From Planctomycetota bacterium (GTDB lineage: Bacteria > Planctomycetota > DG-23 > DATKVD01): a stretch of 64,000 nucleotides of DNA. The notes under the pieces were generated by a model. The model did not search any database and had not been told where the DNA came from. It saw nothing but the letters and a program-made list of their open reading frames with translations. Location: NCBI GenBank assembly GCA_037439485.1, contig JBBIVY010000003.1, forward strand, positions 1,452-65,451, in the 5' to 3' direction. Shown here piece by piece: positions 4,339-63,388 of this stretch; within the stretch, counting starts at the first letter, position 1, and each line of letters begins with the position of its first letter. Position numbers and translations under genes: made by a program.

Positions 4339-5079
4339 ATGGCCTTCTGCGAGGTGAGTTTCTGGGGCGGGGCGGTCGGGAAGCAGTGCTCGATGAACGT
4401 CATCCTGCCGGAGTCCGACAAGGTGAAGCCGCCGTACGGGCTCCTGATTCAGCTTCACGGGCTTTCGGACGATCATTCGATCTGGGCCCGGCGCACGAGC
4501 CTCGACCGCTATGTTGCGGGGCGGCCGCTGGTCGTCGTGATGCCCGACGGCGGGCGGAGCTTCTACTGCGACGCGGTGGCCGGGCCGGCCTACGAGCGGC
4601 ACATCATGAAGGACGTGCTGGGCTTCGTGGAGAAGAACTTCCCCGTGCGGCGTGACCGTCGGGCGCGGGCGATCGGCGGGCTTTCGATGGGCGGGTACGG
4701 CGCCATGAAGCTCGCCCTCAAGTTCCCGGGCGTCTTCGCGAGCGTCGCGTGCCATTCGAGCGCGTTCGATTTCGGCCACGCGCCGAAGTGCTGGGACAAC
4801 GAGGAGTGGACGCGCATCCTGGGCGCCGCCGTGCCGGGCGGAAAGGACGATGTCTACGCCGCCGCGGAGAAGATCGACCGGCGCAAGGCCCCCGCGATCC
4901 GCTTCGACTGCGGCACGGACGACGGGCTCCTCGGATCGAGCCGCAGCTTCCACGCGCATCTGAAGAAGCTCGGCATCAAGCACGAGTACCGCGAGTTCCC
5001 CGGCAATCACAACTGGGCCTTCTGGGACGAGCATGTGCAGGAGGCGATCAAGTTCCACATGAAACACCTCGACGTGTGA
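4339..5079 (+). CDS. esterase-D / putative-esterase family alpha/beta hydrolase (S-formylglutathione-hydrolase-like)
   Basis: ORF 4111-5079 trimmed to ATG 4339 (MAFCEVSFWGG...), which aligns with start of paralog at 5156 and has SD GGAGGATCGG upstream; motifs LHGLSDDH, GLSMGGYGA (GxSxG), HEYREFPGNHNWAFW. Confidence 0.85.
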   Translation: MAFCEVSFWGGAVGKQCSMNVILPESDKVKPPYGLLIQLHGLSDDHSIWARRTSLDRYVAGRPLVVVMPDGGRSFYCDAVAGPAYERHIMKDVLGFVEKNFPVRRDRRARAIGGLSMGGYGAMKLALKFPGVFASVACHSSAFDFGHAPKCWDNEEWTRILGAAVPGGKDDVYAAAEKIDRRKAPAIRFDCGTDDGLLGSSRSFHAHLKKLGIKHEYREFPGNHNWAFWDEHVQEAIKFHMKHLDV

Positions 5080-5155
5080 TTGTGCGACGCGCGAGGGCGG
5101 CCTCGTGATGACGCGCTGAGGGACCCGAAAGCACGGAACGAACAGGAGGATTGCC

Positions 5156-8724: not shown

Positions 8725-8750
8725 TGTAGGACAGGCATTCTTGCCTGTCC
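8725..8750. repeat. REP-like element: TGTAGG + imperfect palindrome GACAGGCATTCTTGCCTGTC (family 1)
   Basis: Palindrome recurs at ~61546-61565, ~61574-61593, ~62155-62174, variants at ~62128-62145 and 36770-36789; conserved GTAG tetranucleotide as in RAYT-associated REPs; in 5' leader of ppdK. Confidence 0.6.
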
Positions 8751-9075
8751 GGTCTCTCGGAAGGGTATTCCGAAACATCCCGATTGTATCGACGCTCCGC
8801 CGGAGTGTCAACGCCGTTTTCCGCCGCCCGGCCGCCGTTTTTTCCGCGAATGCCCTTGCCTTCCGCGTGTCCCGCGGGTTGTGTGAAACCTCCCTTTGTC
8901 ACTAAACCTCTCAAGCTGTTGAATGCATTTTTGCGCTGATAATCTCTACAATCACTGAATCCGCGAACTAATGGCTCCCTTGGTGTTTCTTGGGTGGGCA
9001 GTCGAGTGGATGCGGTCCGAGACGGCCTTCGGAGAAGGGACCAAACAGCGGAATCAGGAAATCCCGTAACGTCGG

Positions 9076-9105
9076 CTTGACAGGAGAGGTAGAGGGGCGA
9101 TAGAA
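9076..9105 (+). promoter_or_regulatory. candidate sigma70-type promoter of the pilus operon
   Basis: TTGACA (9076-9081) - 18 nt - TAGAAT (9100-9105), ~135 nt upstream of pilB start. Confidence 0.5.
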
Positions 9106-9138
9106 TACAATGGTTCAGGCGGGACGGATGCTTCGTTC

Positions 9139-9214
9139 GTAGGGGCACGGCATGCCGTGCCCGGTCTTTGTTCCATTGGCAGAGAAACGCGGGCACGGCA
9201 TGCCGTGCCCCTAC
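9139..9214 (+). promoter_or_regulatory. twin perfect 20-bp palindromes in pilB leader (GTAG-palindrome ... palindrome-CTAC)
   Basis: GGGCACGGCATGCCGTGCCC at 9144-9163 and 9191-9210, 27 nt apart, flanked by cGTAGg (9139-9142) and cCTACa (9211-9214); between candidate promoter and pilB ATG; operator, attenuator or REP pair. Confidence 0.5.
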
Positions 9215-9239: not shown

Positions 9240-10961
9240 ATGACGACCGACCATCGCAAGGGTTTCGCGCAGATCCTCATCGAACAGGGCCTCTGCACCA
9301 AGAGCCAGATCAAGGAGGCCTTGGGCATCCAGAAGGAGAAGGGCGGCAAGCTCGGCGACATCCTCGTCGAGCGCGGCTACCTCTCCGAGACGGACAAGGC
9401 CCAGGTGCTCGGCAAGCAGTTCGGCCTGGAGGTCATCGACCTCGACACCTACACCATCGACCCGATGGTGGTGGACCTTCTGCCCCGGGCGCTGGCCCGC
9501 AAACATCAGGTGCTGCCTCTGACCCGAGAGGGCACCCTCGTCAAGGTGGCGATCACCGACCCCCTGGACTTCGAGGCGCTTGACAACCTGCGGTTCATCC
9601 TCAACAGCGAGGTTCAGCCCGTGATCGCGACCCCCGAGGCGGTTCGGAGGTCGATCGACCGGTTCTACGAGACGGAGGTCTCCACCCTCGACCAGGCCGT
9701 CAGCGACTTCACCGACGTGGGCGATGGGGAGTCCGGCGAGTCGTCGCAGAGCTTCGACCTGGGCGCGGCGGGGGGCGAGGACGACGACGCGCCCGTCATC
9801 CGCCTGGTGCGGCTCATCATCTCCGAGGCGGTGAAGTCGCGCGCGAGCGACATTCACATCGAGCCGCTGGAAAACCGTCTCCGCATCCGCTACCGCGTCG
9901 ACGGCGACTGCATCGAGGTCGATTCCCCGCCGAAGCGCCTGCAGAACTCCATCATTTCCCGCGTCAAGATCATGTCGGGCATGCAGATCGAGGAAAAGCG
10001 TCTGCCGCAGGACGGGCGCATCCGCATCCGCATCCGCGGCAAGGAGATCGACATCCGCGTGTCGACGCTGCCGGCGAGCCACGGCGAGAGCGTGGTGCTG
10101 CGCTTGCTGGACAAGGAAAACGTCATGGTCGGCGTCGAGAAACTCGGCTTCCACGAGACCGACCGGATGCGGTTCGAAAAGATCATCAAGCGGCCGAACG
10201 GCATCTTCCTCGTGACGGGCCCCACGGGCTCGGGCAAGACGACGACGCTCTACTCGGCGCTCCAGGAACTCAACCGGCCCGACCGCAAGATCATCACCGC
10301 CGAGGACCCCGTCGAGTACAACATCTCCGGCATCAACCAGTGCGAGGTGAAGGAGCGCATCGGCATGACGTTCGCGCGAATCCTGCGCGCGATGCTGCGG
10401 CAGGCGCCCAACGTCATCCTCGTCGGCGAGATCCGCGACGGCGAAACGGCCGAGATCGCCATCCAGGCCGCGCTCACCGGGCACCTTGTCTTCTCCACGC
10501 TTCACACCAACGACGCCCCGTCCGCCATCACCCGGCTCATCGACATGAAGATGGCCCCGTTCCTCGTCGCCAGCTCCATCCAGGCGATCATGGCCCAGCG
10601 TCTCGTCCGCGTCATCTGCGCGGAGTGCAAGGAGCCCTGGGAGGCAGACCCCAAGCTCTGCTCCGGCATCGGGCTGGGCTCTCAGCAGCTCGAGGGGCGC
10701 ACGCTCTATCACGGCCGCGGCTGCCGCGCCTGCGTCAGCACCGGCTATCACGGCCGTCTTGGCATCTTCGAACTGATGGAAATGACCCGGCAGATCCGCG
10801 AAATGGCCTTCCGCATGGAGCCGACCAACGTCATCCGCGATCAGGCCCGCCGTTCGGGCATGGTGACGCTGCAGGAGGATGGCGTGCGCAAGGTCCTCGC
10901 GGGCATCACGACCGTCGAAGAGATTCTCACCAACGCGTCGCGCGACACGGTCCTCGCCTGA
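9240..10961 (+). CDS. pilB: type IV pilus assembly / type II secretion ATPase, PilB/GspE family
   Basis: ORF 9168-10961 trimmed to ATG 9240 (SD AGGGGG 8 nt upstream); N-terminal T2SSE_N-type domain, Walker A GPTGSGKTTTLY, Asp box and Walker B, tetracysteine CAECKEP...GRGCRAC; 573 aa. Confidence 0.9.
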   Translation: MTTDHRKGFAQILIEQGLCTKSQIKEALGIQKEKGGKLGDILVERGYLSETDKAQVLGKQFGLEVIDLDTYTIDPMVVDLLPRALARKHQVLPLTREGTLVKVAITDPLDFEALDNLRFILNSEVQPVIATPEAVRRSIDRFYETEVSTLDQAVSDFTDVGDGESGESSQSFDLGAAGGEDDDAPVIRLVRLIISEAVKSRASDIHIEPLENRLRIRYRVDGDCIEVDSPPKRLQNSIISRVKIMSGMQIEEKRLPQDGRIRIRIRGKEIDIRVSTLPASHGESVVLRLLDKENVMVGVEKLGFHETDRMRFEKIIKRPNGIFLVTGPTGSGKTTTLYSALQELNRPDRKIITAEDPVEYNISGINQCEVKERIGMTFARILRAMLRQAPNVILVGEIRDGETAEIAIQAALTGHLVFSTLHTNDAPSAITRLIDMKMAPFLVASSIQAIMAQRLVRVICAECKEPWEADPKLCSGIGLGSQQLEGRTLYHGRGCRACVSTGYHGRLGIFELMEMTRQIREMAFRMEPTNVIRDQARRSGMVTLQEDGVRKVLAGITTVEEILTNASRDTVLA

Positions 10962-13993: not shown

Positions 13994-14012
13994 GCCGCCG
14001 AATACGGCGGAA

Positions 14013-14166
14013 TAGCGAATGACAAAGCCCGAATGACGAAACAATGACGAAGCCTGAATGGCGATCCGGCGAACCGTTGAGATCCTCCCGGGTTCGCCTC
14101 TTGTTCGGTCTTCAGTCATTCGGTTCTTGATTCGTTATTCGGGCTTTGTCATTCGTCATTCGCCAT
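14013..14166. repeat. ~150-bp imperfect inverted repeat with arms built of GAATGAC-type motifs
   Basis: Left arm GCGAATGACAAAGCCCGAATGACGAA (14015-14040) pairs with right arm TTCGTTATTCGGGCTTTGTCATTCGTCATTCG (~14131-14162); apex hairpin GGCGAACCG...CGGGTTCGCC (14068-14098); preceded by CCGCCG-aata-CGGCGG hairpin right after pilB2 stop; between pilB2 and pilC. Confidence 0.55.
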
Positions 14167-14281
14167 TGATACGGATTTCCGCACTTGCCGGTTTTGCCCC
14201 CTTGGGTAGAATTTGAACGGACGATAAGGCCGTTCCGTTTCCCCTAACGGGGCCACAGGGCCCCCCGACGGAGGATGGACG

Positions 14282-17671: not shown

Positions 17672-17788
17672 AAGCGGTTTTGGGTTTTAGGTTTTGGCTT
17701 TTGGATTGAAGAGCAAACGGCGCCCGGATGGCGGGCCTTGCCGTGAATCCAAAATCCAAAAGCCAAAACAGGAAAAAAGGAGGTCGCG

Positions 17789-23676: not shown

Positions 23677-24255
23677 ATGGAACGGCATACCGTCTTCAAA
23701 GGCCGCCGCATCGAGGTCGTCGTCGACCGCATCCCCGTGGAAAACGGGCGCACGGTCGAGCGCGAGATCGTATTGCATCCCGGCGCCGTGGTCATTGCCG
23801 CGGTCCCTTCGCCGGGCCGCGTGCTCATCCTCCGCCAGCACCGCCACGCCGTCGGCGGCGAACTCATCGAGCTTCCCGCCGGCACCCTTGAGCCGGGCGA
23901 AGCGCCCGAGGCGTGCGCCGCGAGAGAGCTGGAGGAGGAGACCGGTTTCGCCTCGCGGCGGATACGCCTCCTGACGTGCTTCTGGTCCTCGCCGGGGATA
24001 CTGCGCGAGAAGATGCACCTGTATCTCGCCGAGGATCTCGTGAAATCCGAGCAGCACCTCGACGAGGACGAAGTCCTCCGCGTCGAGGAGGTCTCGCTCG
24101 CGGACGCCGTCCAGTGGGTCAAGGACGGCCGCATCGCCGACGCCAAGACCGTGGCCGGGATTCTCTATCTCGCGCAGTTCGGGCCATTTCTCCCTCTCCC
24201 TCCGGGAGAGGGTCAGGGTGAGGGCAGTCGCCGACGGGATCGGACTTCCCCATGA
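23677..24255 (+). CDS. NUDIX hydrolase (ADP-ribose pyrophosphatase-like)
   Basis: ORF 23641-24255, likely start ATG 23677 (MERHTVFKGRRIEVVVD...); NUDIX box GGELIELPAGTLEPGEAPEACAARELEEETG; last ~22 codons are encoded by a REP-like element. Confidence 0.85.
   Translation: MERHTVFKGRRIEVVVDRIPVENGRTVEREIVLHPGAVVIAAVPSPGRVLILRQHRHAVGGELIELPAGTLEPGEAPEACAARELEEETGFASRRIRLLTCFWSSPGILREKMHLYLAEDLVKSEQHLDEDEVLRVEEVSLADAVQWVKDGRIADAKTVAGILYLAQFGPFLPLPPGEGQGEGSRRRDRTSP
24190..24224 (+). repeat. REP-like element family 2 (CTCCCTCTCCC-loop-GGGAGAGGG-TCAGGGTGAGGG), copy inside nudix 3' end
   Basis: ctccctctccctccgggagagggtcagggtgaggg; reverse-complement copies at 30756-30793 and ~60714-60751. Confidence 0.6.
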
Positions 24256-27271: not shown

Positions 27272-27338
27272 GAAGTTTCTCTTGCCACAGGGCACAGAGA
27301 GCACAGAGAGGAGAAGCCAATTCAGGGGTACAGCAAAG

Positions 27339-27376
27339 AGAAGCAGGAGTCGTTCCTGCTTCTCTTCTTCTTTAAC
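27339..27376. terminator. hairpin terminator between convergent dapB and tgt, embedded in longer imperfect inverted repeat
   Basis: AGAAGCAGGA-gtcgt-TCCTGCTTCT followed by CTTCTTCTTT; flanked by CCACAGGGCACAGAGAGCACAGAGAGG (~27287-27313) and its imperfect complement CTCTGCGCTCTCTGCGCCCTGCTGTGG (~27391-27417). Confidence 0.55.
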
Positions 27377-27436
27377 CCGGATTGCGCTGTTGTTCTCTGC
27401 GCTCTCTGCGCCCTGCTGTGGTCACAGTCTTCGCTT

Positions 27437-30755: not shown

Positions 30756-30793
30756 GCCCTCACCCTGACCCTCTCCCCCAAGGGGAGAGGGAG
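30756..30793. repeat. REP-like element family 2, copy in queH 3' flank
   Basis: gccctcaccctgaccctctcccccaaggggagagggag; ~13 nt beyond queH stop (TAA rc at 30806-30808). Confidence 0.6.
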
Positions 30794-33871: not shown

Positions 33872-33975
33872 GGGTTAAAGGTTGAAGGTTGAATGTTGAA
33901 GGCTGGCGGACGGCCCGACGCGCGCCAAGCGCTTTCATCTTTCCGTCAGCGTTCAACGTTCAACCTTCAACCCGT
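33872..33975. repeat. ~100-bp hairpin element with arms of GGTTGAA heptamer repeats
   Basis: Arm GGTTGAAGGTTGAATGTTGAAGG (33880-33902) vs complement CGTTCAACGTTCAACCTTCAACC (33949-33971), 21/23 bp; ~46-nt loop; between TPR gene stop and ruvA start. Confidence 0.55.
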
Positions 33976-35417: not shown

Positions 35418-35536
35418 AAGTGTCACGTAGCCATGAACTTACGACTGACACATGACAACTGACGAGCAAGGGCCTTGAGACGCGCGGGGTGCTTCCGGAG
35501 TCGTTGCCTGTCAGTTGTCACGTGTCAGTTATCAGC
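35418..35536. repeat. ~120-bp inverted-repeat MITE-like element (copy 1) with CACGTG-containing termini
   Basis: left AAGTGTCACGTAGCC...CGACTGACACATGACAACTGACGAG, right CGTTGCCTGTCAGTTGTCACGTGTCAGTTATCAG; second copy 41257-41378 (right arms 31/36 identical); overlaps MFS stop codon. Confidence 0.55.
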
Positions 35537-36769: not shown

Positions 36770-36793
36770 GTCAGACAGGAATGTCTGACCTAC
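36770..36793. repeat. REP-like element family 1 variant whose CTAC provides the stop codon of upstream gene
   Basis: GTCAGACAGGAATGTCTGAC + CTAC; on - strand reads G-TAG-hairpin where TAG is stop of 36790-38469; extra hairpin CAGGCCC...GGGCCTG at 36734-36759. Confidence 0.55.
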
Positions 36794-38469
36794 CCTGCAT
36801 AGTATCGCCGGAGCATCCGCCTGCGGGGCAGGTCGACGGGGAAGCCGGCGCGGTCGGCGTGGTAGATGCGGGCGAGTTCCTCGAAATCCGCGTCGAGGAC
36901 GTCGGTCATCCGGCCGCGGGAGCGGTCGAGTTCGGCGTCGATCTCGGCACGGAGCGCAAGGAGCCGCCAGCGGACGTCCTTCTTCGCGGAGGTCGGCATC
37001 ATCGCCTCGACGGAGCGCGCGGAGGCCAGCGTCTCGGCGGCGCCCGAGAGACTTACGCACTTGAACGCGGCGCTCGCGGGGAAGCCGGGCGGGTTCGATT
37101 TCGCGGCCGCGGGGTCTTCCCTGAGGGCAATGCTCCGCGCGTGCCGTGCTTCCATCCCGGCGACGATGCGCTCGACGGCCTCGACCGACTCCGAGCCGAA
37201 GTAGTTCGAGGCATACTCGCGCACGGTCTCGGCGGCGTCCTGGCCGTCCCAATAATGCCCCAGGCAGATCGCCTTGTTGAGGTCCTCGTAGATCCCCTCG
37301 GAGTAGGGGAACCCGCCGCTGAGCTTCGAGCCCGCCGAGTCCCACAGGCTCTGGATGTGCCGCGGCAGCGGGTTGGCGCCATAACCGCCCCAGGGGAAGC
37401 TCTTATACATGCTGATCTCGGGGAAGTTGAGGAGCTTCGCGCCGCCCGGCGCGCCGTGGGCGAGGGTGTGCGCGGGATAGTTGTCGCCGGAATCGTCGGC
37501 GAGGAGGTACTTCAGCCACTTCGGCGGCGCTTCGTTCGCCGCCTTCGCGAAGCCGTCCCATTCGCCCGAGGTGAAGTGGTCGAAATACCAGGTCGAGAGG
37601 ATGATCTCCGTTCGCGGCATCACCTCGCCAATGACCCCGGCCACGGCGTCCGCGGTGCGCAGGAAGCCGTTTGCCCCCCAGGGCGCACACCGGCCGCACG
37701 TGCATCCGCCCTGGTCGTAGGGCCAGATCCACGTGAAGCGGATGTCGAGGTCGGCGAAGGCCCGGAGCATCTCGCGCCGGGTGCTCGTGATGTAGTCGAG
37801 CCCGCCCGGTTTTGACGGGCAGATTTCATCGTGATAGTGTCCGCCCGGCTCGGAGGTGTAGCCGTCGTGTCCCGCCGTCCAGTCGGCGCGCAACTCCTGG
37901 GGGCTGTCGGCGTAGCCTTCGTTGCCGATCGTGACGAGCGCCCCCGCGATGCCGACCTGTTCCGCGGCGCGCAATATCGAGTGAAGCCGGCGGATCATCT
38001 CCTTTGCGGCGGGGTCGGCGAGGCCGGTGTAATGGTGCATGTCGAACCAGACCGCGAGCGTGTTGCATCCCCAGAGCGCGAGGTCGCGGACGTAGGCGTT
38101 CACTTCGTCGAGGGGGGCATTGTGGTAGAAGTTGTGGAAGTGCGTCGCGAAGTAGATTCCGCGGATAGGCCGCTCCGGGACGGAGGCCCCGCGCCAGCGC
38201 GAGGGATCGAGCCCGGCGTTGGTCCACCGGCTCGTGCGGAGGAACTTCCCCACGCCCGGCATGAGCCCGCCCGGCCTGTGCGCGATGATCTTGATCGGCC
38301 CCCGAGGCGAGCCGTCGATTTCGAACCCGTCGTCCTCGCCGTCCAGGAGGTCCAGCACCACCTCTACCCGCTTCGCCCGCCTCCGCGTCAGTTCCTCCAT
38401 CAACACCTGCGCCGCCGCATCCACCAGCGGCTCGCCTTTCGCTTCCTTCGTCGCGCGGACGCGGATCAT
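36790..38469 (-). CDS. putative TIM-barrel glycoside-hydrolase-like protein (560 aa)
   Basis: ORF 36790-39069 trimmed to ATG 38469 (MIRVRATKEAKGE...) just downstream of SGNH gene stop; segment GIYFATHFHNFYHNAPLDEVNAYVRDLALWGCNTLAVWFDMHHY resembles GH-like TIM barrel; family not resolved. Confidence 0.55.
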   Translation of the reverse strand: MIRVRATKEAKGEPLVDAAAQVLMEELTRRRAKRVEVVLDLLDGEDDGFEIDGSPRGPIKIIAHRPGGLMPGVGKFLRTSRWTNAGLDPSRWRGASVPERPIRGIYFATHFHNFYHNAPLDEVNAYVRDLALWGCNTLAVWFDMHHYTGLADPAAKEMIRRLHSILRAAEQVGIAGALVTIGNEGYADSPQELRADWTAGHDGYTSEPGGHYHDEICPSKPGGLDYITSTRREMLRAFADLDIRFTWIWPYDQGGCTCGRCAPWGANGFLRTADAVAGVIGEVMPRTEIILSTWYFDHFTSGEWDGFAKAANEAPPKWLKYLLADDSGDNYPAHTLAHGAPGGAKLLNFPEISMYKSFPWGGYGANPLPRHIQSLWDSAGSKLSGGFPYSEGIYEDLNKAICLGHYWDGQDAAETVREYASNYFGSESVEAVERIVAGMEARHARSIALREDPAAAKSNPPGFPASAAFKCVSLSGAAETLASARSVEAMMPTSAKKDVRWRLLALRAEIDAELDRSRGRMTDVLDADFEELARIYHADRAGFPVDLPRRRMLRRYYAG

Positions 38470-38495: not shown

Positions 38496-38538
38496 TTGTT
38501 CTTCCCTCTCCGTTGGGGAAGAGGGAAGAGAAGACTAC
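38496..38538. repeat. REP-like hairpin + CTAC overlapping stop codon of SGNH hydrolase gene
   Basis: CTTCCCTCT-ccgttgggg-AAGAGGGAAG then AGAAGACTAC; CTA (38535-38537) is rc TAG stop of 38535-39803. Confidence 0.45.
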
Positions 38539-39803
38539 TTCTTCGCCGCATAGGGCGGCCAGTCGAAGTGGGGCGCGCCGAAGAGGGTTTCGAGTATCTC
38601 GGCCATCATGACGTGGCCCATGATGTCGGGGTGATAGTCGTTGGCGAGATAGGCCCAGGCGTATTTCTCGCCGCGATACATGCTCCAGCGGGTGATGTCG
38701 GCGAAGGCGACCTTCTCCGCCTTGGCGAAGGCGCGGAGTTTCTCGCTGATTTCCTTGGAGAGCTTTGGGATGCTGCCGCCGGTGGTGGGGGACATGACGA
38801 CGATCTGCGAGGTCTTCTTCTTCAGCGTATCGACGAGGACCTTGACGTTCGCGAGCCACTGGTCGGGGGACTTGCCCGCCCAGCCCATGTCGTTGGCGCC
38901 GAACTCGATGAGGACAACATCCTCCGTGCCCGTCTCGGCGAGCACCTCGGGCAGCTTGGACTTCGCCTGTTCCGCCTGCCAGCCGCCCCAGCCCTTCTGC
39001 ACGGGGGTGATGCCCTTGTAGCCGTAGCGCGTTTCCAGACCGCGCGCGAGGTCGGAGAAATAGAGGCACGGCATGATGTCCGCGGGTTTCAGGCCCCAGT
39101 TGCCCCGGTTCGCCTGCGCGCCCGCCGTGACGGAATCGCCGAACCCGATGATCTTGAACGGCTTCTTCTCCTTCAGCCGCGCGACCGTGGGCGCCAGCGC
39201 CTCGGCCCCGCCCACGAGGTCCTTCGTGTTGATCGTCTCATCCGGCCCCGCCGTGGGCGTGATCGCCGGGCTTGAGTCGAACGCCGGGCCTTCGGTGCCG
39301 AGGCGGTCGATGATGAACCACACGTCGTGCTCGGCGGGTTTGGCCAGGCCTATGGCGAACATGTACCCGAGGTCGGGCTTGTCGGCCTTCGTGCCCAACT
39401 GCTCCCACGTGAGGTCAATCTTCTTCCACTCGGGCGTCACCTTAAAGGTCGCCTTGCCCTTGATCGTCATCTCGAGCGGCTCCGACGACTTGGCATAGAG
39501 CGTGATTCCTGCCATGCCGGTCGGCCACGCGTCGTTCTCGTAGGTGAGCGTGCCCTTCTCTCCCGCCTTCACGTCGACGCGAAGGGCGACGCCGTCGGTC
39601 ACGGAGTCTTTCGTCGCGTAGCGCCGCGCCCCGACCGGCAGCACCTTGCCCGGGCCGCCGAGCTGCACGCAGAACCAGAGGCCCGTGCGGTTCTCGGAGG
39701 AGTCTCCGCCCTTCTTGAACGGCTTGAAGTCGCCGCGCGCGAGCGCGGGGGCCAGCATCACCGCGACGGCCGCGGCGAGACACAGGGCTCTTCGCGTCGT
39801 CAT
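38535..39803 (-). CDS. secreted SGNH/GDSL hydrolase
   Basis: ORF 38535-39827, best start ATG 39803 (SD AGGAGG 7 nt upstream; MTTRRALCLAAAVAVMLAPALA signal); GDS motif IIGFGDSVTAG, catalytic DYHPDIMGH. Confidence 0.8.
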   Translation of the reverse strand: MTTRRALCLAAAVAVMLAPALARGDFKPFKKGGDSSENRTGLWFCVQLGGPGKVLPVGARRYATKDSVTDGVALRVDVKAGEKGTLTYENDAWPTGMAGITLYAKSSEPLEMTIKGKATFKVTPEWKKIDLTWEQLGTKADKPDLGYMFAIGLAKPAEHDVWFIIDRLGTEGPAFDSSPAITPTAGPDETINTKDLVGGAEALAPTVARLKEKKPFKIIGFGDSVTAGAQANRGNWGLKPADIMPCLYFSDLARGLETRYGYKGITPVQKGWGGWQAEQAKSKLPEVLAETGTEDVVLIEFGANDMGWAGKSPDQWLANVKVLVDTLKKKTSQIVVMSPTTGGSIPKLSKEISEKLRAFAKAEKVAFADITRWSMYRGEKYAWAYLANDYHPDIMGHVMMAEILETLFGAPHFDWPPYAAKK

Positions 39804-39902
39804 CTTCATTCCTCCTCGTGTGGGCAATGGGGTTTGCGCATATCAGCCTATCCATCCCGCGGCGGCAGTCAAGCACCATCCGCAGGGCCGGGCGGAGAAT
39901 TC

Positions 39903-40571: not shown

Positions 40572-40587
40572 TCCCGACGCGTCGGGA
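40572..40587. repeat. small palindrome TCCCGACGCGTCGGGA (family 3)
   Basis: near-identical TCCCGACGTGTCGGGA at 54562-54577 inside composite REP; both intergenic. Confidence 0.4.
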
Positions 40588-40912: not shown

Positions 40913-41260
40913 ATGGGGTTTCTGCTTGCTGACGGCGCCGCGCAAGGCAGTAATGGATGGGCGATGGCCCTCCAGTTCCTGCCTTTTGTCGCGATCATCC
41001 TCATCTTCTGGTTCCTGGTCTTCCGGCCCGAGCGCCAGAAGCAGAAGAAGCGACAGGAGCTCATCGAGTCCATCACCAAGAACGACAAGATCATCACCAT
41101 CGGCGGCATGCACGGCGTCGTGAAGTCGATCAACGACACGGAACTGGTGCTGCTGGTGGACGAGAAGACGGGCGCGCAGATCAAGTTCAACCGCTCGGCG
41201 ATCTTCACCAAGGTCACCGGCGACGAGCAGAAGGGCGAGTTGGAGCCGCCTCAGAAGTGA
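40913..41260 (+). CDS. yajC: preprotein translocase subunit YajC
   Basis: ORF 40826-41260 trimmed to ATG 40913 (SD GGAGG 5 nt upstream); single TM LQFLPFVAIILIFWFLVFRPERQKQKKRQE..., 115 aa. Confidence 0.85.
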   Translation: MGFLLADGAAQGSNGWAMALQFLPFVAIILIFWFLVFRPERQKQKKRQELIESITKNDKIITIGGMHGVVKSINDTELVLLVDEKTGAQIKFNRSAIFTKVTGDEQKGELEPPQK

Positions 41261-41378
41261 CACGTGACAACCGAATTCGTGACGACTGGCGACTGACGAC
41301 TGACAAGTGAAAGAGGAGATCCTGCGCCGCGCACTCTTTTTCGTTGTCTGTCAGTAGTCACGTGTCAGTTGTCAGTCC
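41257..41378. repeat. MITE-like inverted-repeat element (copy 2) inserted between yajC and secDF
   Basis: AAGTGACACGTGACAACCGAATTCGTGACGACTGGCGACTGACGACTGACAAG ... CGTTGTCTGTCAGTAGTCACGTGTCAGTTGTCAGTCC; begins at yajC stop codon; homologous to 35418-35536. Confidence 0.55.
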
Positions 41379-54552: not shown

Positions 54553-54641
54553 GTAGGGGGCTCCCGACGTGTCGGGATGGCCCCGTGCTCCTTCTTCTCG
54601 ACAAAGAAGAAGAGCGGGCGGACACATGGGTCCGCCCCTAC
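54553..54641. repeat. composite REP-like element (GTAG - three hairpins - CTAC) filling the gap between the two hydrolase genes
   Basis: GTAG(54553-54556), TCCCGACGTGTCGGGA, CTTCTTC-tcgacaaa-GAAGAAG, GGGCGGAC-acatgg-GTCCGCCC, CTAC(54638-54641); CTA is rc TAG stop of 54638-55453. Confidence 0.55.
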
Positions 54642-55453
54642 AGAGAATAGATCCAGTCAACAGTCGCCGTGATCAGTTCCTTCGCCTCGACCCGTTCGAC
54701 CCGGTCCCAGATGACCTGTTCCTTGACGCCGACGGCTTCCGCCTTCGCCCCCGCGGCGCGCAGGGTCGCGGCAAGCTCTTCGAGGGCCGGGGAAACCTTG
54801 GCATTGAAGGCGATCTGGACGAGCAGCGCCCGGCCGGCAAACCTTCCGGCGAGCGCCTTCGCGTCGAGCGAGGAAATGCCTTCGATGAGCTTCTTGCCGA
54901 TGGCGAGGCCGTCGAGGTCGAGGAATCCGTCCGCCTGAATCTGCGCGAGGACCGCGTCGCGGCCGGTGGCCTTCTTGCCGGTCGTCATCATCTCCTTGAT
55001 CATCCGTCGGCGGAGGATTTCGTCGACGTATTTCGCGCCGGAGAGAATCGGTTCCCAGAGGACGACGGCCGCGGTAGGTGACTGCGCCACGGAGGCGAGC
55101 GCCAGCGTCGCGCCGAGCCGGAGGCCGAGGAGCGTGAGCGCCGCGGCGGGGAACCGTTTCGCAAGCTCCGCCCGCGCGGCGGCGATATCTTCGAGCCATG
55201 CGTCGAGCGTCGCGTCCTCGGATTCACCCGAGGAGTCGCCTTCGCCTGAAAGGTCGAACCGGAGCGTCGCGATGTCTTTGGAGGCAAGCGCCCGGGCCAG
55301 CTCGACGAGCACGCGGTGGGAGAACTTCTTCTCTTCGGCGAAGGGATGGACGACGAGGACGGCCGAGCGCGGCGACGCCGGGGCGTGCAGGATGCCGGTG
55401 AGTTCCCGCCCGGCGGCTCGAAAGCGGATCGGCTCCTCGGTCGGCATGGTCAT
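54638..55453 (-). CDS. alpha/beta hydrolase (second of tandem pair)
   Basis: 271 aa; VLVVHPFAEE, GLRLGATLAL, C-terminal catalytic region; ATGA overlap with upstream ACP stop. Confidence 0.75.
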   Translation of the reverse strand: MTMPTEEPIRFRAAGRELTGILHAPASPRSAVLVVHPFAEEKKFSHRVLVELARALASKDIATLRFDLSGEGDSSGESEDATLDAWLEDIAAARAELAKRFPAAALTLLGLRLGATLALASVAQSPTAAVVLWEPILSGAKYVDEILRRRMIKEMMTTGKKATGRDAVLAQIQADGFLDLDGLAIGKKLIEGISSLDAKALAGRFAGRALLVQIAFNAKVSPALEELAATLRAAGAKAEAVGVKEQVIWDRVERVEAKELITATVDWIYSL

Positions 55454-60713: not shown

Positions 60714-60751
60714 CGCCCTCACTCTGACCCTCTCCCCCAAGGGGAGAGGGG
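60714..60751. repeat. REP-like element family 2, copy in fabG-like gene 3' flank
   Basis: gccctcactctgaccctctcccccaaggggagaggggaa; 38-bp near-identical to 30756-30793. Confidence 0.6.
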
Positions 60752-61541: not shown

Positions 61542-61600
61542 TGTAGCACAGGCATTCCTGCCTGTGATGCTTATGACAGGCAAGAATGCCTGTCCCACAA
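61542..61600. repeat. REP-like element family 1, double-hairpin copy (GTAG + two palindromes + CCACAA)
   Basis: tGTAGcacaggcattcctgcctgtg atgcttat gacaggcaagaatgcctgtc ccacaa; coordinates +/-1; intergenic between fabG-like and lipoyl-protein genes. Confidence 0.6.
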
Positions 61601-62102: not shown

Positions 62103-62127
62103 GGTGTTTCTCCGTGGCTTTGGTGGG

Positions 62128-62180
62128 GCAGACATTCCTGTCTGCCCCCCGAATGACAGGCAGGAATGCCTGTCCCACAA
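62128..62180. repeat. REP-like element family 1, second double-hairpin copy
   Basis: gcagacattcctgtctgc cccccgaat gacaggcaggaatgcctgtc ccacaa; same architecture as 61542-61600; lies between lipoyl-protein start and GT4 stop. Confidence 0.6.
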
Positions 62181-62188
62181 ACTTCATA

Positions 62189-63388
62189 CTAACGTCCGCG
62201 CGCGCGCTCCGCAAGCACCTCGTCGTAGACGCGCTCGATTCCTTCGGCGGTGAGCCCGGCGTCGAACCTCGATGCGGCCGCCGCGGCCCGCGAGCCCATC
62301 GACGCGCGAAGGGCGCTTGAGCCGAGCAGGTCCGAAAGCGCCCCGGCCAGGGCCGGCACGTCGCCGAACGGCACCAGGAGGCCCGTTTCGCCGTGCTCGA
62401 TGATCTCCGGCAATCCCCCGGCGCGCGTGCCGACGACGGGCTTGCCCATCGTCATGGCCTCCACCGCCGCGCGGCCGAACGGCTCGTTACGCGAGGGGAG
62501 TACCACGACGGTGCTGTCGATCAGGCATGAGGCGACGTCGTTCCGCCGGCCGGCGAAGATCACGACGCCCTCGAGGCCGAGCGTGCAAACGAGCTTGCGC
62601 AGGTGCGCCAGGTGCGCGGCGTCGTCGGGCGACATCGCTTCGCCGACGAAGAGCACTCGCAGCGAGGGGAACTTCTGGCGCGCCGCGCCCAGGGCGGCGA
62701 TGAGAAATTCGTGCCCCTTCCAGGGCGTCATCTGCCCGACGAGCGTGACAAGCGGAGCCTCGGGCGGAATGCCGAACTCGAACCTCACGCGGTCGGGCCG
62801 GGCGGAGGCGAGAAGCGATGCGCGGTCGATGCCGTTCATGACGAGGCGCACTTTCCCGGCGCCGGCGCGGCCGGCCCGAGCGAGCACGCTCTTCTCGACG
62901 GCGCCGCTGATGCAGATGACTCGGTCGGCAAACCGGAGCAGCGTTCGAGCGCCCGCGCCGAGATCGACGAGGTCCCGCACGTGCCACACCGAGCCCGTGC
63001 GCCGGAGCGCCGCGGCGGGTCCGGCCGAGAGGAACGCCGTGGTCGTGTTCGCGTGGACGATGTCGATCCTGCGTTCGGCGATGATGCGCGAAAGGCTGAG
63101 CGTGGAGAGCCCGACGTCGGCGAGCCCGGCCGCGACGGCGGGGATGGCCCTCGCGCGGCGGATGCGGCGGAGGCGGACGGTGATCTGCTCGATGCCGGCG
63201 ACGCGCACGGCGTCGGCGAAGGGGCCTTCGGGGCAGGCGACGACGGGACGGAACCGCCGGCGGTCGATGCGCGCGAGGACCTCCAGCAGGCTTATCTCGG
63301 CGCCCGAGATTCTTGCCGAGTGATCCACGCAGAGCACATTGGCCGGGCCTTCCCGTCCCGATGCATCGGGACCCGCAGGCGGGTTCAT
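62189..63388 (-). CDS. glycosyltransferase family 4
   Basis: 399 aa; GT-B; EAMTMGKPVVGTRAGGLPEIIEHGETG; ATGA-type overlap with upstream lipoprotein gene. Confidence 0.85.
   Translation of the reverse strand: MNPPAGPDASGREGPANVLCVDHSARISGAEISLLEVLARIDRRRFRPVVACPEGPFADAVRVAGIEQITVRLRRIRRARAIPAVAAGLADVGLSTLSLSRIIAERRIDIVHANTTTAFLSAGPAAALRRTGSVWHVRDLVDLGAGARTLLRFADRVICISGAVEKSVLARAGRAGAGKVRLVMNGIDRASLLASARPDRVRFEFGIPPEAPLVTLVGQMTPWKGHEFLIAALGAARQKFPSLRVLFVGEAMSPDDAAHLAHLRKLVCTLGLEGVVIFAGRRNDVASCLIDSTVVVLPSRNEPFGRAAVEAMTMGKPVVGTRAGGLPEIIEHGETGLLVPFGDVPALAGALSDLLGSSALRASMGSRAAAAASRFDAGLTAEGIERVYDEVLAERARGR

Follow-up and report, generated by a model that had tools for sequence, protein, structure and literature searches.

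To our knowledge, the study of REPs and RAYTs has so far been almost confined to Gammaproteobacteria. REPs are palindromes of 20-50 nt that are preceded by GTAG and occur in inverted pairs, with a single-copy tnpA_REP gene in a REPtron (PMC8266576). Of the two strands, the E. coli and S. maltophilia enzymes recognize the REP strand alone, as single-stranded DNA in its folded form, and do not bind its inverse; they need both the tag and the orientation of the loop, whose reversal abolishes binding, and they cleave at a nearby CT (PMC8266576). Di Nocera et al. 2013 (PMC3733652) distinguished 24 families of GTAG REPs, including those of Opitutus terrae (mostly GTGG) and Rhodopirellula baltica; head-to-head dimers are favored, and the TAG of the tag often serves as a stop codon. 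According to Quentin et al. (PMC6006769), the tnpA_REP genes of subclasses that occur in scattered phyla are surrounded by canonical GT[AG]G REPs.

Here, we analyzed a 64-kb stretch of planctomycetotal DNA (hereafter the window; 65.8% GC), in which the original prediction had placed a family of at least eight loci of GTAG-associated REP-like palindromes. The window was scanned for perfect stems of 7 bp or more that are preceded by GT[AG]G, and genes were mapped by codon statistics, in agreement with Pfam checks of the flanking genes. ARAGORN detected no tRNA genes in the window, and no Rfam family matched it at the gathering score. The scan resulted in 12 tagged hairpins, compared to 1.1 on average and 4 at most in dinucleotide shuffles; control tetranucleotides in place of GT[AG]G gave 2-5 hairpins. 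REP-like units between genes account for nine of the 12, and the remaining three (14804, 17924 and 53326) lie inside coding sequence and look like chance hairpins. Depending on which are counted, the 64-kb window holds 9 to 11 units, all of them intergenic. The 18-mer core ACAGGCATTCYTGCCTGT has four exact copies (8731+, 61548+, 61576- and 62156-), where 0.06 would be expected. Recurrent GTAG-associated palindromes are thus real by both counts. These GTAG-flanked intergenic hairpins are genuine members of a known REP class, and it is very likely that they are REPs of the GTAG-tagged superfamily that were spread by a dedicated RAYT. According to the gene map, all loci that had been named are intergenic, and the list comprises seven of them:

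8726-8749, plus strand: single REP unit, GTAG + GACAGGCA + TTCT + TGCCTGTC, a core copy found by the tagged-hairpin scan
9139-9214, no strand assigned: head-to-head dimer of a second REP family, GTAG-GGGCACGGCATGCCGTGCCC at 9139-9162 (plus), a 28-nt spacer and GGGCACGGCATGCCGTGCCC-CTAC at 9191-9214 (minus)
36770-36793, minus strand: single REP unit, GTAG + GTCAGACA + TTCC + TGTCTGAC, found by the tagged-hairpin scan
38496-38538, minus strand: doubtful member, imperfect hairpin CCCTCTCC..GGGAAGAGGG directly after the TAG stop of a GDSL-lipase gene (38535..39809, minus)
54553-54641, no strand assigned: composite element of three hairpins in a GTAG...CTAC frame, namely a GTAG-tagged imperfect hairpin at 54553-54584 (plus), a central hairpin at 54591-54612 and a GTAG-tagged perfect hairpin at 54616-54641 (minus)
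61543-61598, no strand assigned: core-family head-to-head dimer, GTAG-CACAGGCATTCCTGCCTGTG at 61543-61566 (plus), an 8-nt spacer and GTGG-GACAGGCATTCTTGCCTGTC at 61598..61575 (minus)
62123-62178, no strand assigned: head-to-head heterodimer, GTGG-GGCAGACATTCCTGTCTGCC at 62123-62146 (plus) and GTGG-GACAGGCATTCCTGCCTGTC at 62178..62155 (minus)

Six units carry the core, each consisting of 5'-GT[AG]G, an 8-bp stem NNCAGRCA, a TTCY loop and the returning stem. Since all six share this tag-stem-TTCY-stem order, the orientation of the loop is fixed relative to the tag. The unit is 24 nt long, within the size range of 20-50 nt given for REPs, and its palindrome, which had been called imperfect, is a perfect stem of 8 bp closed by a 4-nt loop. 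The degenerate core CAGRCATTCYTGYCTG matches the window six times, each time with 0 mismatches, and no further copies were found in the window at up to 3 mismatches (1.87 expected). The variant GCAGACATTCCTGTCTGC is exact at 62128 and has a second copy with 2 mismatches at 36771. Adjacency of GTAG was borne out in so far as a GT[AG]G tag is present on all nine intergenic units of the window, but half of the tags of the six core units are GTGG, the rest being GTAG. The assumption of one shared core also needs narrowing: it fits the six core units, but 9139-9214 (for which a different core had already been stated) and 54553-54641 have other stems in the same GTAG/CTAC frame and are other REP families. 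The tagged 24-mer of the dimer 9139-9214, with the second core of the window, GTAGGGGCACGGCATGCCGTGCCC, recurs in an Acidobacteriota contig (L054), where it again forms head-to-head dimers. None of the fetched comparison loci contained the stems of 54553-54641 or 38496-38538.

The membership of 38496-38538 did not stand up well. What had been taken for its 'GTAG' spans two codons, AAG TAG, and its stem CCCTCTCC/GGGAAGAGGG is similar to those of a separate set of hairpins, CCCTCTCCCC..GGGGAGAGGG, located at 24192, 30769 and 60728. Judged by sequence, this locus probably belongs to a different hairpin family and should be dropped from the REP family. The second hairpin family has the form CCCTCTCCCC-CAA-GGGGAGAGGG and is present at 24192-24224, 30758-30791 and 60717-60750, and loosely at 38504-38525. 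The copy at 24192 reads CCCTCTCCC-TCC-GGGAGAGGG, those at 30769 and 60728 are intergenic, and a flank conserved on one side reads TCAGGGTGAGGG or its reverse complement CCCTCAC(C/T)CTGA.

All four two-unit loci (9139-9214, 54553-54641, 61543-61598 and 62123-62178) are head-to-head with their tags outside, and the two hairpins that had been reported at each of ~61542-61600 and ~62128-62180 are indeed the dimers 61543-61598 and 62123-62178. Spacers measure 6, 8 and 28 nt and the partner units vary by locus, so that the fixed doublet with conserved spacer of a REPIN was not seen and fixed-doublet replication is not evident in the window. The Pseudomonas fluorescens SBW25 REPINs (Bertels and Rainey 2011, PMC3116915) are similar in that inverted units with a short spacer form one long hairpin, as at 9139-9214 and 61543-61598, but differ from the window's loci, in which spacers and partners change from locus to locus and heterodimers such as 62123-62178 occur.

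The GTAG-tagged superfamily (PMC3733652), including the PVC families GTAG-17 to -21 of Opitutus terrae and Rhodopirellula baltica, shares with these elements a GTAG or GTGG that is left unpaired on one side only, stems of 6-9 bp, short loops, a preference for head-to-head pairs, intergenic positions mostly downstream of genes, use of the tag TAG as a stop codon, several families per genome and RAYT genes flanked by their own REPs. Unlike the families described there, the core repeat of the window spans many more phyla. The NNCAGRCA/TTCY stem-loop is absent from the text and supplements of that paper (the consensus sequences of its Figure 1 lay outside the search) and, as a string, from searchable papers; the peptides encoded by the repeat were not found in its supplements either. 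The Stenotrophomonas maltophilia/Pseudomonas Group 3, or subclass 2.5, system (Corneloup et al. 2021, PMC8266576) has a similar unit of 23-24 nt with GTAG, an 8-bp perfect palindrome and a short loop, although the loop there is 3 nt and here 4 nt (TTCY). Loop orientation is essential in that system and one strand is the substrate, and by analogy we propose the same for the elements studied here. Its enzyme differs from the RAYT described below, which has about 150 aa and an RRHLPHW motif and belongs to a clade known from sequence alone. E. coli REP/BIME elements with RayT (YafM), of group 2, share the GTAG foot, the HUH and Tyr residues, the REPtron layout and the inverted pairs; however, E. 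coli REPs are longer, and their enzyme depends on an imperfect stem with a bulge, whereas the stems here are perfect.

The core repeat is not restricted to this genome. A scan with the 18-mer, with one genome per species, yielded at least 120 contigs. Among the contigs listed, Planctomycetota labels are Phycisphaeraceae, Tepidisphaerales, Gemmataceae and Thermoguttaceae, and Acidobacteriota labels are Bryobacteraceae, Solibacteraceae, Pyrinomonadaceae, Blastocatellia and Thermoanaerobaculia; further labels include Verrucomicrobiota, Lentisphaerae and Bacteroidetes/Ignavibacteria. Single contigs in the list are labeled Aquificaceae, Calothrix, Chromatiaceae, Eisenbacteria and Moduliflexus, and the lone MAG matches named Aquificaceae, Calothrix or Chromatiaceae may result from wrong binning.

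These comparison loci, which were chosen by the core sequence itself, provided 143 copies in 120 contigs that could be oriented by the TTCY loop. Their tags are GTAG in 61, GTGG in 47, GGAG in 10 and GTGA in 8 copies, and some lineages have GGAG or GGGG in place of GT[AG]G. By position, there is G at -5 in 140, T at -4 in 125, A or G at -3 in 142 and G at -2 in 125 of the 143 copies. The tag was found solely 5' of the TTCY loop, and the 3' side is unconserved. The closing pair -1/+1 covaries (G:C 72, C:G 54). When tag and loop were the sole criteria, at least 7 of 8 stem positions were paired in 201 of 344 matches, compared to 3 of 147 in a reversed-loop control. Compensated stem variants include GACAGGCA (79 copies), CACAGGCA (63), GACAGACA (21), GGCAGACA (5) and GTCAGACA (4). 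Neighboring units across all loci are head-to-head in 55 of 77 pairs, with 11 tail-to-tail and 11 head-to-tail. Moreover, 30 of 111 GTAG units end an open frame of 100 codons or more with the TAG of their tag, versus 7.4% of all TAG triplets. The orientation statistics suggested in the original prediction are thus available from other genomes, with head-to-head pairs dominant and the tag on one side of the loop only.

These data also bear on the reading that the palindromes are operators of a dimeric DNA-binding regulator with its own regulon, which might be suggested by their palindromic form and by their location near promoters at 8726 and 9139. The compensated changes preserve the hairpin rather than the sequence, the asymmetric tag and loop keep a strict polarity, most copies lie at gene 3' ends or between cistrons instead of at promoters, and the neighboring genes are unrelated in function. 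We consider operators extremely improbable and rejected this reading on the compensated stems and the strict polarity of tag and loop.

Searches of six-frame ORFs by phmmer with E. coli RayT, by jackhmmer and with an HMM of 121 RAYTs found no RAYT in the window, as had been predicted. No RAYT was detected in 31 viral contigs with the core. Among the 120 fetched contigs there was one RAYT only (88.1 bits on NF047646; cut-off 80), in the Acidobacteriota locus L054. It was rejected as the cognate enzyme because the repeat that flanks it is a different one, GTACCGCTGGCCTCCGGCCGGCGC; its relatives have N-terminal extensions that are translated from other repeats, e.g. RRPEASGT and SAGVPPAV. This gene (L054:7331-7999), together with its homologs P0001-P0120, represents a second RAYT clade of about 199 aa, with at least 7,903 clusters and an N-terminal motif RGKLPHWE. 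Members are flanked by other repeats such as GTACCGCTGGCCTCCGGCCGGCGC, and miscalled extensions (RRPEASGT, AGGTPAV and SAGVPPAV) reveal each flanking repeat. JGI names some of them 'menaquinone-specific isochorismate synthase'.

Metagenome contigs were also scanned for the repeat followed, 48-78 nt on, by codons for P-H-W-E/D, an N-terminal RAYT motif. Ten loci were obtained, and in three of them (L160 and L162 included) a RAYT ORF adjoins the repeat. The L160 protein has 164 aa, scores 84.2 bits on NF047646 (REP_Tyr_transpos; cut-off 80), matches Pfam Y1_Tnp and is flanked by arrays of nine and five units. The L162 protein has 154 aa, scores 81.3 bits on NF047646 against the same cut-off of 80, also matches Y1_Tnp and lies between two head-to-head dimers in a genome with 40% GC. 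The stop codon of both genes is the TAG of a tag, and the unit that comes after the L162 gene, GTAGGTCAGACATTCCTGTCTGAC, has the same sequence as 36770-36793 of the window. This low-GC REPtron (L162:10267-10899) is directly 3' of an ORF that by eye resembles Cas4 in its cysteine pattern and a RecB-like motif. In L159 (577-2781, minus strand), a whole REPtron lies in frame and stop-free within an ORF of 735 codons for a CCA-adding tRNA nucleotidyltransferase. The insert of about 247 aa is in the HD-domain region and consists of a RAYT domain between two REP dimers; with 67.4 bits, the RAYT domain falls short of the NF047646 cut-off of 80, and the flanking loop variant is CTCT.

A homology search with the L160 protein retrieved 355 clusters, and source names in this clade are Phycisphaeraceae, Phycisphaerales, Isosphaera, Aquisphaera insulae, Planctomycetota, Chlorobi, Zixibacteria, Bacteroidota and Acidobacteria. 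In 16 of the best 120 of the 355 clusters, the ORF call runs into repeat-encoded peptides (VGQAFLPV, DRQECL, TGIPAC, QTGMSV), whereas none of 120 did so in the L054 clade. Six more members are flanked by the repeat (L164, L165, L166, L167, L170 and L171). The units beside the RAYT of Phycisphaeraceae D3-23 are the same as 62123-62146 of the window, sharing the 24-mer GTGGGGCAGACATTCCTGTCTGCC of locus 62123-62178; one Phycisphaeraceae MAG and one Acidobacteria MAG among the six inspected have the repeat on their flanks; a Chlorobi MAG (L166; 39% GC) has it solely on the downstream side; Aquisphaera insulae has nine units nearby with GGAG or GGGG tags; and a Zixibacteria MAG (L171) has units with the loop variant CTCC. 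Overall, eight of the eight RAYT loci of the clade that were examined, among them loci from Phycisphaeraceae, Isosphaeraceae, Acidobacteria, Chlorobi and Zixibacteria, have the repeat or a variant of its loop on their flanks. The clade proteins are about 150 aa long, have the N-terminal motif RRHLPHW and are 18-27% identical to E. coli RayT, whose H59, H61, Y115, N119, W94 and R104 are invariant in the clade alignment; the L160 and L162 proteins possess the HUH motif, the catalytic Tyr and the YxxxNP motif, and the subclass is possibly 2.4 (Bertels group 4). A RAYT flanked by these REPs, which the original prediction had proposed to look for, is therefore found in other genomes, with Y1_Tnp and NF047646 matches. 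Because the RAYT gene adjoins exactly the core repeat of the window in several phyla, the repeat is an apparently undescribed member of a known repeat class. Its assignment to the RAYT-mobilized type agrees with the polar tag in 143 copies, the dominance of head-to-head dimers and the eight flanked loci.

We infer that the source genome carries the RAYT and that its copies are or were mobile. Alternatively, the units could be inert relics of a RAYT that was once present and is now lost, the copies decaying or co-opted, as would fit the window, which holds no RAYT, and REP-bearing genomes reported as having lost the gene (PMC3733652, PMC6006769). Decayed copies at up to 3 mismatches are nevertheless absent from the window, where six of six core units match the consensus, and related Phycisphaeraceae retain the RAYT; we regard relics as unlikely. 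In the favored reading, spread by a dedicated RAYT, the 24-nt unit would fold into a hairpin as single-stranded DNA and would be recognized, cut and rejoined by the HUH/Tyr enzyme RAYT (TnpA_REP). By analogy with the E. coli and Stenotrophomonas enzymes, this protein may bind the single strand in its folded state, depend on the GTAG foot and on how the loop is oriented, and cleave at a CT close by. Copies would thereby spread into intergenic DNA, mostly as head-to-head pairs.

Several units are closely associated with the ends or starts of genes. Three units supply the upstream gene with its stop codon through the TAG of their tag (36790, 38535 and 54638): the TAG of 36770-36793 (36792..36790) ends a gene at 36790..38469 (minus), and that of the hairpin 54616-54641 ends a hydrolase gene at 54638..55453 (minus). 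The dimer 61543-61598 lies between a lipoyl-domain gene and an SDR gene, and the heterodimer 62123-62178 between a GT4 glycosyltransferase gene and the lipoyl-domain gene, all on the minus strand. The unit 8726-8749 is antisense to the gene for pyruvate phosphate dikinase (PPDK), 28 nt upstream of its start codon (8697, minus strand), which is backed by an identical 912-aa NCBI protein. A promoter-like TTGACA-17-TACAAT is at 8811..8783 on the minus strand, and the unit follows about 25-50 nt downstream on the PPDK side. Likewise, TTGACA-18-TAGAAT at 9077..9106 precedes the dimer 9139-9214, which lies downstream on the side of a pilB/T2SSE-like gene (ATG at 9240), inside its predicted 5' UTR. 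Both promoter-like sites match 11 of 12 positions, so 8726-8749 and 9139-9214 should be in 5' UTRs.

The predicted RNA folds of the elements range from -21 to -79 kcal/mol (z -2.9 to -9.6); as RNA, the dimers 9139-9214 (-79.4 kcal/mol, z -9.6) and 61543-61598 (-42.3 kcal/mol, z -7.0) are each predicted to form one long hairpin. None of the six core units was called as an intrinsic terminator and none has a T-run, and this reading of the core units was dropped on those grounds; weak T-rich tails are present in the window only at 9143/9191 and 54616. RNA transcribed from the units would form very stable hairpins directly at stop codons, within operons between consecutive genes, and in two 5' UTRs, where they probably alter the mRNA stability or translation of neighboring genes.

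The same positions (stop codons, gaps between co-directional genes and 5' UTRs after promoters with 11 of 12 matches), along with very stable predicted RNA folds and six of six perfect core units, would suit host regulatory RNA elements, i.e. stabilizers, attenuators or terminators kept by selection at their sites rather than made by a transposase. However, unrelated genes in unrelated phyla, some in genomes with 39-40% GC, have the same 24-mer beside them; the repeat borders RAYT genes at eight of eight loci; the nearest relative has no intact unit at the orthologous PPDK site; and core units lack a T-run and are not called intrinsic terminators. Regulation fits as a secondary role that leaves the origin of the units unexplained, and as their primary nature it appears quite unlikely.

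The closest named relatives of the window's PPDK are in Planctomycetes/Planctomycetota MAGs (76-80% identity), followed by Phycisphaerae (72-74%). The nearest relative compared at this site, L168, has a PPDK 86% identical to that of the window and has retained the ribosome-binding site as well as the promoter hexamers with the GTTTCGGAATA after them. In this one orthologous comparison, no intact hairpin is present at the site corresponding to 8726-8749. The aligner set a partial match, GGCAAGAGTCCGTTT of L168, opposite part of the unit, so that insertion in the window and decay in L168 are both possible. Mobility of the unit is suggested here by a single orthologous sequence comparison. The combination of TTGACA-17-TACAAT with GTTTCGGAATA is common to 8783-8811 (minus) of the window and to about 2160-2190 of L168.

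For the 64-kb window alone, the finding is ordinary genome content. Beyond it, the same 24-nt unit occurs with a small matching RAYT clade in Planctomycetota, Acidobacteriota, Chlorobi/Bacteroidota and Zixibacteria. The repeat of 18-24 nt is identical across phyla, even at 39-40% GC, while the RAYT proteins have drifted: they are about 50-60% identical, and a small unbootstrapped NJ tree groups them roughly by phylum. We tentatively raise the possibility, itself rather doubtful, that repeat and RAYT clade have been co-inherited since before the split of Planctomycetota, Acidobacteriota, the Bacteroidota/Chlorobi group and Zixibacteria. If true, this would be the most deeply conserved REP-RAYT pair known and would imply extreme co-constraint of enzyme and hairpin. 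The system could also be used to ask if REP-RAYT pairs are maintained by vertical inheritance over very long periods. The cultured carriers Phycisphaeraceae D3-23 and Aquisphaera insulae offer a test system for how a RAYT reads a perfect hairpin, its foot and its loop. For genome annotation, the units give stop codons, spurious ORFs and N-terminal extensions (VGQAFLPV, DRQECLS, TGKNACPT), and they break assemblies.

Besides the REPs, the window contains six long intergenic inverted repeats, at 14010-14167 (in the gap 13994-14281), 17677-17769, 27288-27415, 33872-33973, 35444-35529 and 41255-41377. Their arms are 74-90% complementary, lie 31-82 nt apart and consist of short tandem motifs (CGAATGAC, GGTTTT/CCAAAA, CACAGAGAG, GGTTGAA and GACTGAC/GTCAGT). 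In addition, a palindrome TCCCGA-YGYR-TCGGGA recurs at 40572-40587, 54562-54577 and 63355-63372, and the PPDK terminator hairpin of L168 (about 5050-5085) contains GTCCCGACGCATCGGGAC, which may be compared with it.
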